Source: a virus. Taken from it: a DNA stretch of 37,225 nt. The notes under the pieces are model-generated. The model was not told the DNA's origin. It did no database searches and was given only the letters and a program-made list of their open reading frames with translations. Numbering within the stretch: the first letter of the stretch is position 1; each line of letters starts with the position of its first letter. Location of the stretch: the IMG/VR virus record IMGVR_UViG_3300045988_027175. One strand, written 5' to 3'. Position numbers and translations under genes: made by a program. Below, one piece after another: positions 28,310 through 31,583 of this stretch.

Positions 28310-28768
28310 ATGAAATTATACGATACTTCATTAAAATATATGGACACTCTTAATGCAGTAGGGGGCACTATTGTAGCAGTGTTAACCGCTGCATTAGGCA
28401 CACATTGGTTTTTATTTGTTGGTTTTTTAGTCTTGAATATTATCGACTATATTACAGGAGTTAGAAAATCAAGACTGACAGGCAAAGACAACAGCGCCAA
28501 GGGAGTGCGTGGTGTATGGAAAAAGTTAGGGTACTGGTTAATGGTACTCGTTGCTTTTCTCGCATCAGCGATTTTTATTGAGATTGGTCAGACTATCAAT
28601 GTTGATCTAACAATTACTACTTATGTTGGATGGTTCACATTGGCATCTCTCATTATCAATGAGTTACGCAGTATTCTTGAAAATTTCGTTGAAGCAGGGG
28701 ATAACGTACCATCCGTACTTACAAAAGGTTTAGAAGTGGCTGAAAATGCTATTAACAAGGAGAAATAA
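28310..28768 (+). CDS. Holin (phage_holin_4_1 / TcdE-like family)
   Basis: Three hydrophobic segments. IIDYITGVRKS...SAKGVRGVWKK and the NELRSILENFVEAG motif. Confidence 0.8.
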   Translation: MKLYDTSLKYMDTLNAVGGTIVAVLTAALGTHWFLFVGFLVLNIIDYITGVRKSRLTGKDNSAKGVRGVWKKLGYWLMVLVAFLASAIFIEIGQTINVDLTITTYVGWFTLASLIINELRSILENFVEAGDNVPSVLTKGLEVAENAINKEK

Positions 28769-28770
28769 TC

Positions 28771-29445
28771 ATGGCAAGTTACTTTAATCTAACACTTGAT
28801 ACTCTTGCTCCCCAGGGGCTTACTATCAAGTTAAATAATGGCTCTCAGTATACTACATCTAAGAATGTTACTTTAAGCATCTCAGTATCTGATACATCCA
28901 CATCAGGATATCAGATGAAGGTTTGGGGGATTGATGGAGCATCATCTGAAGATAGTGCTTCATGGGAGACTTTTGCATCAACAAAAAGTATTGCACTTCC
29001 AACAGGCGACGGACTCAAGACTGTATACGTAAAAGTACGTGATGATGTCTGCAATGAGACTGCTGCTGCATCTGCTACCATCACATTAGATACTTCAGTA
29101 CCAGCCGTTACTATCATTGGTCCAGACGTCTCAAGAATCTCTAAGACAGCACCTAAAAACGTGGCTACATTCAGTTTCACTTCTGACGTAGCTTTCACAG
29201 AATATAAGATTAAGGTAGTACCTTCTAAATCATCATTACATGATGCTGGTACATTAATCGGAACTGCAAATGGTTCTACAAATGTAAGTGCAACAGGTAC
29301 ATTTAAGGCTAGCACTGCCATTACTTGTAAGATTTATGGCAAAGATCTAGAGGCAGCATCTGCTGGAGATGTGTTTCATATCTCTTTAGGAGATATCAAT
29401 GTAATCAAGGCAAAGGCGCCTATTATCAGATATGAGGAGGATTAG
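28771..29445 (+). CDS. Hypothetical protein with two Ig-like/beta-sandwich repeats
   Basis: Repeated LDT(L/S)(A/V)P...TL(S/D) pattern. S/T-rich. Sits between the holin and lysin genes. Confidence 0.55.
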   Translation: MASYFNLTLDTLAPQGLTIKLNNGSQYTTSKNVTLSISVSDTSTSGYQMKVWGIDGASSEDSASWETFASTKSIALPTGDGLKTVYVKVRDDVCNETAAASATITLDTSVPAVTIIGPDVSRISKTAPKNVATFSFTSDVAFTEYKIKVVPSKSSLHDAGTLIGTANGSTNVSATGTFKASTAITCKIYGKDLEAASAGDVFHISLGDINVIKAKAPIIRYEED

Positions 29446-29447
29446 AA

Positions 29448-29741
29448 ATGAAAATATTTATTTCGCAACCTATGAAAGATTTGTCTGAAGAAGAAATCAA
29501 GGCAGATAGAAAAAGAGCAATCGAGAAGGTAAAAAATATTTACGGCGATGATGTAGAAATTATTGACAGTTATAACAATAAGTATCAGAAGCCGTTAGTG
29601 TGCCTTGCAAAATCAATTGAATTATTAGCTACTGCTGACATTGCTTATTTTTGCAAAGGTTGGAACAAAGCGAGAGGATGCAGAATTGAATATATGTGCG
29701 CCAACGATTACGGAATCGGTGCATATTTTGAGGAGGAATAA
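29448..29741 (+). CDS. DUF4406-like protein (nucleoside 2-deoxyribosyltransferase-like fold)
   Basis: MKIFISQPMKDLS ... ADIAYFCKGWNKARGCRIEYMCANDYGI matches the DUF4406 pattern as recalled. Confidence 0.5.
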   Translation: MKIFISQPMKDLSEEEIKADRKRAIEKVKNIYGDDVEIIDSYNNKYQKPLVCLAKSIELLATADIAYFCKGWNKARGCRIEYMCANDYGIGAYFEEE

Positions 29742-29743
29742 AC

Positions 29744-30535
29744 ATGAGTTATATTTTTAAGACTAATATTGCGAATAGAAGCAATTACGGAAGCGCTAGA
29801 GATTTAAACACTATCAAATATTTAGTAATCCACTATACTTCTAACGATGGAGACAGTGACGAAGGAAACGGAAAATATTTCCACAACAACGTTGTGAAGG
29901 CATCAGCCCACTATTTTGTAGATGATGATTCCGTTACTCAGTCAGTGCCAGACAACTATGCAGCGTATTCAGTAGGGGGCAAATGTCAGTCTAATCATCA
30001 TCCACTTTATAATATTTGTAAGAATGCCAACTCCATCAGCATTGAAATGTGCGACTCAGTTAAAAATGGAGTTGTCGAGATTACAGATAAGACAATCGAA
30101 AACACTATGGTATTAGCATCAATCATCATGAAGCGCTACAATATCACAATTGATCGTGTTATCCGTCACTATGATGTAAATGGCAAGGCATGCCCTAACT
30201 GCAATGGATTATTACAGGATGCAAAGTGGGAAGCATTTAAAAATAGACTAATGGAAATCTACGCTGTAGTTAATCCATCTGAAAAGCCAACCGAAAACGC
30301 TACTGATAAATTAGGCACTTATGTAGTGACTGCATCAAGTCTAAGAGTCAGAACAGGGCCAGGAACAGACTACAGAAGAAAAAAGAAATCTGAATTAACA
30401 GCCAACGCAAGAGAGCATGCTACATTCACAGGAGCACTTAAAAAAGGCACTAGAGTGACAGTCAAGGAAATTCGTGACGGTTGGGCTCGCATTCCATCTG
30501 GTTGGGTATGTGCTGATTATCTCAAAAAAGTCTAA
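29744..30535 (+). CDS. Endolysin: N-acetylmuramoyl-L-alanine amidase (Amidase_2/PGRP) with a C-terminal SH3b domain
   Basis: IKYLVIHYTSN...ASAHYFVDD...AYSVGG. C-terminal LRVRTGPGTDY...GWARIPSGWVCADYL. Confidence 0.9.
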   Translation: MSYIFKTNIANRSNYGSARDLNTIKYLVIHYTSNDGDSDEGNGKYFHNNVVKASAHYFVDDDSVTQSVPDNYAAYSVGGKCQSNHHPLYNICKNANSISIEMCDSVKNGVVEITDKTIENTMVLASIIMKRYNITIDRVIRHYDVNGKACPNCNGLLQDAKWEAFKNRLMEIYAVVNPSEKPTENATDKLGTYVVTASSLRVRTGPGTDYRRKKKSELTANAREHATFTGALKKGTRVTVKEIRDGWARIPSGWVCADYLKKV

Positions 30536-30570: not shown

Positions 30571-30622
30571 TGACTAAACTCGACTAAATCTCGACTAAAT
30601 TTCGACTAAATCTCGACTACAC
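30571..30622. repeat. Five tandem copies of (T/C)GACTA(A/C)A at 10-11 bp spacing; the middle three read CGACTAAAT
   Basis: tGACTAAAct cGACTAAATct cGACTAAATtt cGACTAAATct cGACTACAca. The G of each unit is at 30572, 30582, 30593, 30604 and 30615. Confidence 0.85.
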
Positions 30623-30640
30623 AACAATTTAAAGCATAAG

Positions 30641-30675
30641 AAAAGACCAGGGCTATTTGCTCTGGTCCTTTTTTG
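30641..30675 (+). terminator. Rho-independent terminator ending the late/lysis operon; overlaps the 3' end of the convergent RHH gene
   Basis: aaaaGACCAG-ggctatttgct-CTGGTCcttttttg. Confidence 0.65.
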
Positions 30676-30847
30676 CTTTCTCAATATCATCTCTTATAAG
30701 TTTTTTAATGTAACCCATTTTAGATTCGACATGATCAAGTTTTTCTAGAATGTCTGCATCTGTTTTCTTATTGAATGCAAGATTGACACATTTCGTCATC
30801 TTCTTAGCATAGTTTGCGCTAGCTTTCTTCTGCGCTTCAGTTGACAT
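30653..30847 (-). CDS. Ribbon-helix-helix (Arc/CopG-like) DNA-binding protein
   Basis: SD GGGAGG upstream. YAKKMTKCVNLAFNKKTDADILEKLDHVESKMGYIKKLIRDDI fits the strand-helix-helix pattern of small RHH proteins. Confidence 0.55.
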   Translation of the reverse strand: MSTEAQKKASANYAKKMTKCVNLAFNKKTDADILEKLDHVESKMGYIKKLIRDDIEKAKKDQSK

Positions 30848-30860
30848 GGTTATACCTCCC

Positions 30861-30941
30861 TTAGAATAATTTTGAAATCAAGAATACTAATACTGCAATA
30901 AGCCCAATCAATTCGATAGCTTTTAAAATTAATTTTTCCAT
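30861..30941 (-). CDS. 26-aa hydrophobic micropeptide MEKLILKAIELIGLIAVLVFLISKLF
   Basis: Not in the ORF track. Paralogous to the 37-aa peptide upstream (shared LIG...L(I/V)...KLF ending and shared ttgattggg at the DNA level). Its stop is 11 nt before the RHH start codon. Confidence 0.45.
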   Translation of the reverse strand: MEKLILKAIELIGLIAVLVFLISKLF

Positions 30942-31004
30942 TGTTTTCTTTGAAAAGTGGTTTTATAATAGTGATAGGAAGAGAGGACAAGCCTCTCAAC
31001 CTAC

Positions 31005-31118
31005 TTAGTTAAATAGTTTGATTAGAATCAAAATCCACCCAATCAAGGAAATGATTTTAATCACTAGCGCTTCGAATAGGTCCAATATTCGAAGCATTTT
31101 TTTTAACTTCTTTTCCAC
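31005..31118 (-). CDS. 37-aa micropeptide MEKKLKKMLRILDLFEALVIKIISLIGWILILIKLFN (GTG start)
   Basis: SD AGGAGG 8 nt before GTG 31118. Basic N-terminus and hydrophobic C-terminus. First gene after the consensus promoter. Confidence 0.5.
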   Translation of the reverse strand: MEKKLKKMLRILDLFEALVIKIISLIGWILILIKLFN

Positions 31119-31143
31119 TTTTCTTACCTCCTTTCTTGATTAT

Positions 31144-31172
31144 AGTATATCATAAAATTATATAAATGTCAA
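31144..31172 (-). promoter_or_regulatory. Near-consensus sigma-A/sigma-70 promoter driving the micropeptide-RHH operon
   Basis: Minus strand reads TTGACA, a 17-nt spacer, then TATACT. The SD of the 37-aa ORF lies about 15 nt downstream. Confidence 0.7.
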
Positions 31173-31393: not shown

Positions 31394-31474
31394 CTAAACT
31401 AGTAACGAATCAGTAACAAGGGGTAAAAAGTCTAGGAAACAAGCCAATTTTAACATCATATACAAATGTTTCAT
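31394..31474 (-). CDS. Possible 26-aa peptide MKHLYMMLKLACFLDFLPLVTDSLLV
   Basis: Perfect SD AGGAGG 9 nt before ATG 31474. No other support. Overlaps a 26-bp repeat. Confidence 0.25.
   Translation of the reverse strand: MKHLYMMLKLACFLDFLPLVTDSLLV
31395..31420. repeat. 26-bp direct repeat, copy 1 (TAAACTAGTAACGAATCAGTAACAAG)
   Basis: Matches 31533-31558 at 25 of 26 positions. Contains AGTAAC twice, 11 bp apart. Confidence 0.9.
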
Positions 31475-31532
31475 AATAATTTTCCTCCTGTATTTATGCG
31501 GTTTTTTAGGGGTTTGAAACACTATGAAAGCG

Positions 31533-31558
31533 TAAACTAGTAACAAATCAGTAACAAG
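31533..31558. repeat. 26-bp direct repeat, copy 2 (TAAACTAGTAACAAATCAGTAACAAG)
   Basis: See copy 1. Lies between the int terminator and the putative peptide ORF. Confidence 0.9.
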
Positions 31559-31583
31559 AAAAGCCACTTTCAAGGAGTGGCTT
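31553..31583 (-). terminator. Terminator of the integrase gene
   Basis: AAGCCACT-ccttgaa-AGTGGCTT on the minus strand, followed by TTCTTGTT. Confidence 0.6.

Follow-up and report, generated by a model that had tools for sequence, protein, structure and literature searches.

A candidate type I toxin-antitoxin-like cassette at the end of a temperate Firmicutes phage genome, with a predicted antisense RNA that terminates inside a micropeptide gene

The virus record IMGVR_UViG_3300045988_027175, a stretch of 37,225 nucleotides referred to here as the window, is a temperate phage genome. A cassette on its minus strand contains three small genes: pep1 and pep2, which encode hydrophobic micropeptides, and orf64, which encodes a basic protein. 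The operon is genuine, is driven by a promoter and occupies the cargo slot between lysin and att. A perfect inverted repeat inside pep1 appears to serve the opposite strand, as the terminator of a conserved antisense RNA gene that is predicted to face pep1. We propose that the cassette is prophage-end cargo working like a type I toxin-antitoxin (TA) module with two extra parts. In this proposal, to which we assign a probability of about 0.55, pep1 would be the toxin and the RNA of 30976-31104 its antitoxin; pep2 would act as a partner or as a second effector, and orf64 would be an autoregulator. The layout is that of a type I system because it combines a strong sense promoter, a membrane peptide, a convergent antisense RNA with a promoter and terminator, and a second peptide on the same mRNA. 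A sequence-only reading of this DNA had already raised the possibility of a type I toxin. The conserved antisense promoter and terminator described below lend substance to that idea, while toxicity itself is proposed only.

The inverted repeat (31069-31095, 10 bp) is followed on the plus strand by eight T residues (31097-31104), and together they form a predicted intrinsic terminator at 31069-31104 within pep1 codons 5-17. In a consensus scan, the repeat followed by ATTTTTTTT was terminator-like on the plus strand. The A8 that encodes Lys-Lys in pep1 is the U-tract of the opposite strand. The sequence-only reading had taken the repeat as a sign of RNA-level control. Control at the RNA level is retained here, with the difference that the repeat is not a structure of the peptide mRNA and acts on the plus strand. 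In stem-altered close variants (the L022 type and L057), the plus-strand hairpin keeps energies of −13.5 and −13.1 kcal/mol through G·U pairs, compared with −8.8 and −8.2 kcal/mol for the minus-strand hairpin.

The repeat was then surveyed across 21 distinct members of the family. All 21 have a hairpin of 10-15 bp at codons ~8-18, with UUUUAUUUUG-type tails following on the antisense strand. The antisense-strand hairpin is the more stable one in 19 of the 20 members where the same hairpin could be compared on both strands. The stems themselves differ by clade (GCUUCGAAUA; AGCGUUUCGA; GAGCUUUUCAAGCUG; AACUCAUCAAGUUG; GUUUCUCGAGUUG). The Catenibacterium clade builds its stem from other amino acids and in a register that is one base off; therefore, the constraint appears to act on the RNA and not on the peptide. 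Fixed-register counting on the antisense strand gave 20 G·U against 1 A·C (20:1).

Formal pair counts were confined to the terminator of the 15 non-Catenibacterium members because a consensus of the whole RNA failed, owing to the register shift and to middle-hairpin arms that differ by clade. Paired cells amounted to 84.4% on the antisense strand versus 77.8% on the sense strand, and G·U cells to 15 versus 0. Pairs changed on both sides numbered 7/15 on either strand, a value that for the antisense strand was reached by 0/500 shuffles. A covariance model built from these 15 members finds the window at 31014-31114 on the plus strand with 61.4 bits (E = 3.6e-9). The wobble-pair asymmetry and the U-tract together indicate that the inverted repeat works on the plus strand, to terminate the antisense RNA. 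We also considered a terminator for late-operon read-through. This was excluded, since the units of Clostridium carnis (L103) and of phage phiCT453A are co-oriented with the lysin gene and the unit of botulinum phage c-st lies at the genome end.

The predicted cis-antisense small RNA has a length of ~129 nt (~30976-31104, plus strand, with a presumed start) and consists of three hairpins: a 5' stem-loop, one in the middle and the terminator. Its sequence is the complement of the pep1 3' untranslated region and of pep1 codons ~5-37. The sequence-only reading missed this RNA, and yet the interval in which it suggested looking for an antisense transcript, 30860-31120, was well chosen. The plus strand folds with a minimum free energy of −39.4 kcal/mol and z = −6.67, and the minus strand gives z = −4.51. 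The three-hairpin layout recurs in all members, with middle-hairpin arms that vary by clade. The first hairpin is GC-rich and lies between pep1 and pep2 at 30976-31002. It can be read from either strand, as the 5' stem-loop of the antisense RNA or as the 3' stem-loop of the pep1 cistron. Its core, GAGAGG/CCTCTC at 30981-30997, had been noticed earlier; its placement at the 5' end of a predicted antisense RNA is new. All members have a GC-rich hairpin of other sequence at the same spot, with no U-run after it on the sense strand. Rfam searches of the module found no family, with E limits of 1 for the window and 0.5 for four module-bearing relatives. Weak matches to ncr1015 and rli48 were far under the gathering scores.

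The predicted promoter of this RNA, P_anti (30941-30969, plus strand), consists of TTGTTT (30941-30946), a 17-nt spacer and TATAAT (30964-30969). Its −35 hexamer shares one base with the pep2 start codon, and its spacer spans the pep2 ribosome-binding region. An antisense promoter is found in the pep1-pep2 spacer of every member except the decayed L217. Its −35 is found at the pep2 start codon or over it; in typical members, its −10 ends ~6-9 nt before the GC hairpin. Examples are TTGACA-17-TATAAT with an upstream TG in L185, TTGACA-17-TATACT with TG in L203 and L204, and TGnTATAAT in L176, L219 and L222. In the GC-richer members, few or no shuffled sequences (0-0.4%) score as well, so the match is significant there; in AT-rich members it is not. 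The match in the window is weak, and the promoter call here therefore depends on positional homology.

A second promoter-like site on the plus strand, TTGACA-18-AATAAT at 30841-30870, matches the consensus at 11 of 12 positions and is of low confidence. It is invariant in close variants, with its spacer length kept. As a general antisense promoter it was demoted, as it occurs in only part of the Catenibacterium clade and is not found in L191 or in other clades. If active, the site could give an antisense RNA of ~228 nt that also covers pep2, a suggestion we make with low confidence.

The sense promoter, P_sense (31172-31144, minus strand), drives pep1-pep2-orf64. It is of the sigma-A type, with TTGACA (31172-31167), a 17-nt spacer, an extended −10 TG and TATACT (31149-31144). 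It scores 11/12, and only two sites that high occur in a 4-kb scan. Among 34 distinct close variants, a set that includes amino-acid changes, the −10 hexamer shows no change, and the −35 is TTGATA or TTGTCA in a few. Distant members have a 12/12 or near-consensus sense promoter at an equal distance. The pep1 Shine-Dalgarno (SD) sequence, AGGAGG at 31132-31127, stands 8 nt upstream of the GTG start (31118) and is unpaired in the predicted mRNA fold; the corresponding SDs of distant members are of the AAGGAGGTGA type. At the other end, a bidirectional intrinsic terminator (30645-30667) is common to the convergent lysin gene on the plus strand and the peptide operon on the minus strand. Its stem has 9 bp with 6 GC pairs, a T-run follows on the plus strand, and TTTTCTTATG follows the stem on the minus strand. 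Thus, the consensus-promoter-driven operon of the sequence-only reading stands, and all the sequence elements listed there are present on the minus strand where it placed them.

The first gene, pep1 (31118-31005, minus strand), starts with GTG and encodes the 37-residue candidate toxin MEKKLKKMLRILDLFEALVIKIISLIGWILILIKLFN. The second, pep2 (30941-30861, minus strand), encodes a single transmembrane peptide of 26 residues, MEKLILKAIELIGLIAVLVFLISKLF. The pep1 product has a charged amphipathic N-terminal helix in its first half and a C-terminal transmembrane segment, an arrangement of the tail-anchored type. The best 15-residue Kyte-Doolittle windows are 2.74 for pep1 and 2.94 for pep2, and both peptides are hydrophobic and under ~60 residues, the size and membrane character by which type I toxins are recognized. 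Both match the phrog_7712 profile (E = 1.5e-4 for pep1, 3.5e-3 for pep2, down to 1.9e-6 for relatives), an entry with no function, RNA partner or operon context attached. At the DNA level they share TTGATTGGG (CCCAATCAA on the plus strand, at 30903-30911 and 31038-31046). Comparison of the pep1-family and pep2-family profiles gives 88% probability and E = 2.9e-6, with pep1 residues 15-37 aligned to pep2 residues 2-26. The earlier claim of two paralogous membrane peptides therefore agrees with these data, and we keep the view that pep2 is paralogous to the C-terminal half of pep1; one caveat is that transmembrane segments are alike in composition.

It might be argued that these small open reading frames (ORFs) are chance, non-coding frames and that only the RNA and promoter elements matter. 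They are very short, lie in AT-rich DNA and are not called by annotators: neither peptide was called by gene callers in 10 public contigs. However, the ORFs, the strong SDs and the amino-acid pattern persist between families that share 50-60% identity, with variation at third codon positions. The 21 N-terminal codons of pep1, which the search pattern did not include, have entropies of 19.4/9.4/23.4 at the three codon positions, which is a coding pattern. We regard the chance-frame explanation as extremely unlikely; as far as sequence can tell, both unannotated micropeptide genes are real.

In the mechanism we propose, P_sense, which is strong and taken to be constitutive, would produce a minus-strand transcript of pep1, pep2 and orf64. 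The pep1 product, a tail-anchored membrane micropeptide with an open and strong ribosome-binding site, would be the toxin. The convergent P_anti in the pep1-pep2 spacer would give the structured antisense RNA of ~129 nt from the plus strand. This RNA would start with the GC hairpin, cross nearly the whole pep1 ORF and stop at the terminator that doubles as codons 5-17. Its pairing with the pep1 message would lead to degradation or to a block of translation. Convergent transcription, together with the position of P_anti over the pep2 start, may damp downstream expression as well. The shortened paralogue pep2 could act as a second, weaker effector or as a membrane partner of pep1. The small ribbon-helix-helix (RHH)-like DNA-binding protein of orf64 would most likely autoregulate the cassette. 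In lysogens, the cassette probably serves to retain the prophage and/or to provide membrane-level exclusion or abortive defence. We infer that both RNAs are made, that pep1 is toxic and that the RNA neutralises it, and the roles given to orf64 and to the cassette as a whole are of the same kind.

Several observations weigh against this proposal. The P_anti of the window has a score of 9, which is equalled by 27% of shuffles, and P_sense is far stronger than P_anti. The peptides match no known toxin or antitoxin family by sequence. Their N-terminus is charged and their C-terminus hydrophobic, whereas most Gram-positive type I toxins are arranged in the opposite way. Unlike many type I toxin mRNAs, the pep1 mRNA has a short leader with an unpaired SD, so a strongly toxic pep1 would hang wholly on the antisense RNA and/or on repression. 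Finally, repeated EL/KL codons could account for part of the hairpin conservation, though the Catenibacterium clade uses other residues.

The main rival explanation is that pep1 and pep2 are non-toxic lysogenic-conversion peptides. Their function would be to block superinfection or, in the manner of small transporter or kinase regulators, to modulate a host membrane protein, with their level tuned by the RNA and orf64. We consider this possible, with a probability clearly below one half. The very strong P_sense and the open SD suggest that high expression is tolerated, and the position at the prophage end is moron-like. With a heptad-like amphipathic N-terminus that continues into the transmembrane segment, such a peptide may form oligomers or bind a partner. 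PADLOC gave no match, though it would not cover such peptides. Conversely, a dedicated, structured and conserved cis-antisense RNA over the ORF is a hallmark of toxic-peptide control. The pattern of natural loss also speaks against non-toxic peptides, since pep1 alone is repeatedly inactivated in variants, and the peptides and the antisense RNA are lost jointly.

This pattern is seen among the close variants. The sequence-only reading had singled out disrupted peptide frames in close relatives as a finding that would count against it. The frame of pep2 is intact in all of them (34/34), and that of pep1 in 28/34. The six pep1 lesions are a frameshift from A8 to A7 (four cases), a 1-nt deletion (one) and a 21-nt deletion of the start (one). 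Two further copies, L029 (~614-730) and L041 (~576-690), have undergone an exact loss of pep1, the antisense RNA gene and pep2, corresponding to 30863-31124 of the window. This deletion is a recombination of two SD repeats (AAGGAGGTA), and it leaves P_sense driving orf64 directly. L217, the sole copy with a degraded P_anti, also lacks the pep1 SD and pep2. Such natural decay, in which pep1 is inactivated or the peptides and RNA disappear together, fits a toxin-antitoxin reading.

The A8 tract itself (31097-31104; pep1 codons 5-7 on the minus strand, and the antisense U-tract) is one residue shorter (A7) in L019, L033, L048 and L053, which otherwise differ from one another. The change shifts the pep1 frame, and an in-frame internal ATG (Met8) still gives a 30-residue ORF. 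The homopolymer may be a slippage-prone on/off site.

The third gene, orf64 (30847-30653, minus strand), has its own SD, GGGAGG at 30860-30855, and encodes a basic protein of 64 residues. An AlphaFold2 monomer model (mean predicted confidence, pLDDT, 91.6) has helices at residues 4-17, 31-39 and 43-63 and an extended segment at 18-30. We describe it as RHH-like, the model suggesting an RHH core with an extra N-terminal helix. No match was found in Pfam, NCBIfam or PADLOC, no significant one among PDB profiles, and none by Foldseek with the monomer against the PDB. Hence the RHH-like protein named in the sequence-only reading has the expected strand-helix-helix core in the model, and lacks a significant RHH family or structure match. 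In an hhalign comparison, the orf64 family and the third gene of L203 align with 92.9% probability, and the latter has just-below-threshold Pfam matches to the NikA-like, HicB and Arc RHH families. The exact orf64 protein occurs in 1279 blocks of a public assembly collection, and in ten long contigs that carry it, it lies at a prophage end adjoining host genes.

The sequence-only reading had considered the RHH protein as an antitoxin. In this explanation, orf64 would neutralise the peptides directly, with only an incidental presence of the antisense features. Type II antitoxins are commonly RHH or HTH proteins, and orf64 is co-transcribed with the peptides as the third gene. Against it, the third slot is taken by unrelated folds. 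Clostridial members have a phrog_2277 protein, L198 and L219 an HTH_3 protein (over the Pfam threshold), and L123 another RHH-like protein. L185 and L210 have only unrelated small ORFs, and in c-st, L218 and L205 the slot is empty. Moreover, orf64 homologues with 56-67% identity occur in other phage contexts without the peptides (L011/L012, L013, L015-L017), the deletants described above keep orf64 alone, and the covariation of the antisense terminator is strand-specific. The constant pairing with a toxin that marks a type II antitoxin family was not found for orf64. We therefore set the protein-antitoxin idea aside as very unlikely. As the third slot is swapped or empty, the homologues are peptide-free and the deletants keep orf64 alone, the gene is more likely an exchangeable transcriptional regulator than a cognate protein antitoxin.

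Since its homologues occur without micropeptides, the small RHH-like protein appears to be a free-standing phage module. The peptide-free homologues are located between capsid and head-tail adaptor genes or among early genes. One of them belongs to a small phage with a protein-primed type B DNA polymerase and no micropeptides. In clostridial members with a phrog_2277 third gene, a palindrome with 7-bp arms lies on the P_sense −10 and is a candidate operator. It takes the forms TATACTA-TGCG-TAGTATA or ATACTAC-GT-GTAGTAT (L103 12226-12255, L144 2492-2520, L225 ~2520-2550).

The TA kind to which we assign the cassette is already known, and no nameable system was found for the combination, as the sequence-only reading had supposed. 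With a limit of E = 1, neither peptide had a match in Pfam, NCBIfam or PADLOC. Scans of Pfam, NCBIfam, PADLOC and Rfam gave no match to Fst, TxpA/BsrG, YonT, SprA1/SprG, Hok, Ldr, Ibs, TisB or the Rfam antitoxin RNAs. A literature search for the peptide motif, CST001 (a c-st gene) or phrog_7712 found nothing relevant. The closest described case is yonT-yoyJ/SR6 of the Bacillus subtilis prophage SPβ, in which a polycistronic two-toxin mRNA is faced by one cis-antisense RNA of ~100 nt from between the toxins, and the toxin promoter is stronger than that of the antitoxin (PMC5848175). The two cases have in common a prophage location, two small proteins and, as predicted for the present cassette, a polycistronic mRNA, a single antisense RNA and the weaker antisense promoter. 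However, SR6 overlaps the yonT 3' end and the yoyJ 5' end, while the RNA predicted here covers nearly all of pep1 and ends inside its 5' codons. Unlike in the SR6 system, pep2 is overlapped only by the antisense promoter (at its ribosome-binding site and start), and the predicted transcript overlaps pep1 only. Also unlike in yonT-yoyJ, the two peptides are paralogous and are followed by a gene for a DNA-binding protein. No family match links the peptides to YonT, and the likeness is one of layout.

The Clostridioides difficile prophage pairs CD0977.1-RCd11, CD0904.1-RCd13 and CD0956.3-RCd14 combine unannotated membrane toxins of 34-47 residues with cis-antisense RNAs; these toxins have a consensus AGGAGG 7-8 nt from the start and add to prophage maintenance (PMC7699646). 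They have a hydrophobic N-terminus and a lysine-rich tail, the opposite polarity to pep1. Each module has a single toxin without a paralogue or regulator gene, and none is related to this cassette by sequence or Rfam. In Gram-positive type I families, the ORF is overlapped by the antisense RNA from its 3' side, and in Ibs/Sib the whole ORF is covered (T1TAdb, PMC8594479). Ibs/Sib, TxpA/RatA and BsrG/SR4 resemble the present cassette in that the antisense RNA overlaps the toxin ORF itself. They differ in their peptide families, in an antisense terminator that is not built from toxin N-terminal codons, and in a toxin mRNA that is usually monocistronic with a structured leader. What would be new here is the family, the dual coding of a terminator within an ORF, the paralogous second peptide and the swappable regulator.

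The phrog_7712 peptide family is present at ~25 distinct loci, which were found with degenerate DNA patterns; the loosest of these gave many chance matches that were thrown out on ORF inspection. Thus, the peptide pair, which the sequence-only reading had proposed to look for, does occur in other prophages, and the tblastn route it suggested came up empty. In the INPHARED phage set, blastn with the window region and tblastn with the peptide gave no match, probably through low-complexity masking of the peptide, and orf64 gave two weak matches only. A set of 1.84 billion predicted proteins contains only 13 representatives of the family because gene callers skip such ORFs. The carriers are Catenibacterium, Clostridium carnis and other Clostridium, Oscillospiraceae, Ruminococcaceae, Lachnospiraceae, rumen Clostridia, botulinum phage c-st, phage D-1873, and IMG/VR and metagenome contigs. 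Uncultured Catenibacterium genomes carry the locus, and a truncated copy is annotated in Catenibacterium mitsuokai. CST001 of c-st, annotated as 'hypothetical protein', belongs to the same peptide family as pep1 and pep2, and every database name for the family is 'hypothetical protein'. Relatives of pep1 typically read ...KIKELIKLVEQLEKLTIKIISLIGWILILIK.. and show 54-89% identity to the window peptide in a library search. At most loci, pep1 is followed by the GC hairpin, a pep2-like transmembrane ORF of 26-45 residues (MKKLYKxLxIRIISLIGLIAFL...) and a small third gene.

The metagenome-assembled genome of an Oscillospiraceae bacterium (L203) has a second, tandem copy of the module on the minus strand, ~500-800 nt downstream of the first. 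This copy has its own 12/12 promoter and encodes pep1' MKLTDKIKELVKLVEQLEKLTVRIVSWLGWLLYLIHILKN and pep2' MKKNIFKICLFAIELIGIVLFIFMITRGGI. Clostridium phage phiCT453A (L225, 2500-3075) has the same promoter, palindrome and phrog_2277 third gene. Its peptides (genes _58 and _59) are unrelated to pep1 and pep2 and of opposite polarity, the transmembrane segment being at the N-terminus and the C-terminus being charged. On its antisense strand, TGATATAAT with an extended −10 adjoins the start of the second peptide, and a weak, sub-threshold Rfam rli48 match is antisense to _58. The phiCT453A cassette hints at a broader exchangeable scaffold.

Pfam and PHROG scans place the cassette among temperate phage genes. 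On one side are a holin (Phage_holin_4_1, 28310-28768) and an endolysin with Amidase_2 and SH3 domains (29744-30535, plus strand). On the other is a tyrosine integrase (32823-31645, minus strand), beyond which lie a bPH protein and a CI-type S24 repressor. In integrated copies, homology breaks off at window position ~31418 or ~31479, which makes the cassette the outermost cargo, ~250-300 bp from attP. This is in keeping with the lysin-to-att placement made in the sequence-only reading. The two break points imply at least two integration sites. Across the break at ~31479, the host flank encodes an E1-E2 ATPase and a HAD hydrolase; across the one at ~31418, it encodes GH1/ThiC or a PTS IIB protein. 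The attP region (~31395-31560) includes a 26-nt direct repeat, TAAACTAGTAAC(G/A)AATCAGTAACAAG, at 31395-31420 and 31533-31558, which may represent integrase arm sites.

This neighbourhood also bears on whether pep1 and pep2 are lysis accessories, that is, antiholin- or pinholin-like modulators of the holin that time lysis and are silenced by the antisense RNA in the lysogen. The products are small and single-pass, and the cassette adjoins lysis genes here, in L103 and in phiCT453A. However, a canonical holin and an amidase are already there, and the cassette, convergent to the lysin gene, has a sigma-A promoter and a terminator of its own. The c-st copy is found at the end of the genome, beside unrelated hypothetical genes. 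Furthermore, neither peptide matched a holin family in the Pfam and PHROG scans. A function in lysis is thus unlikely.

Other features of the lysis region were also recorded. Between the lysin stop and the bidirectional terminator (30575-30630) there are 4-5 copies of an 11-nt tandem repeat, TCGACTAAAT(C/T), and the length of this repeat region varies between close relatives. The holin and endolysin genes are separated by an ORF of 224 residues (28771-29445) and by a 97-residue protein (29448-29741) related to nucleoside 2-deoxyribosyltransferase/DUF4406 (phrog_355). In relatives, this slot has Sequestin (PF21825) and DUF6275 genes, and the endolysin is of the CHAP, Amidase_2 or Amidase_3 type. 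The lysis region is highly mosaic.

A more elaborate version of the toxin-antitoxin proposal, which we hold to be doubtful, is a three-layer addiction or defence module. The tail-anchored pep1 would form pores, and its N-terminal codons would double as the terminator of the RNA that silences it. The truncated paralogue pep2, which has no cytosolic helix, would be a dominant-negative membrane partner, a peptide antitoxin or a gate. The swappable regulator would set the transcriptional threshold, and the scaffold of promoter, regulator and antisense RNA would accept unrelated peptide pairs, as in phiCT453A. If this were true, dual coding would lock the protein and its antitoxin RNA together. The cassette would then be a general, exchangeable membrane-peptide cassette of Firmicutes prophages, botulinum toxin-converting phages included.

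If confirmed, the type I-like reading would add a new and widespread family to those of Firmicutes phages. Its carriers are a Catenibacterium prophage that is very common in the human gut, Clostridia of the rumen and gut, and c-st and D-1873, both of them botulinum-toxin-converting phages. The design would be unusual in three respects: an antitoxin RNA terminator inside the toxin coding sequence, a paralogous second peptide and a swappable regulator slot. Annotation pipelines overlook both the peptides and the RNA. As a small (~520 bp) and portable unit, the cassette would provide a handle on how prophages use membrane micropeptides for retention and exclusion.

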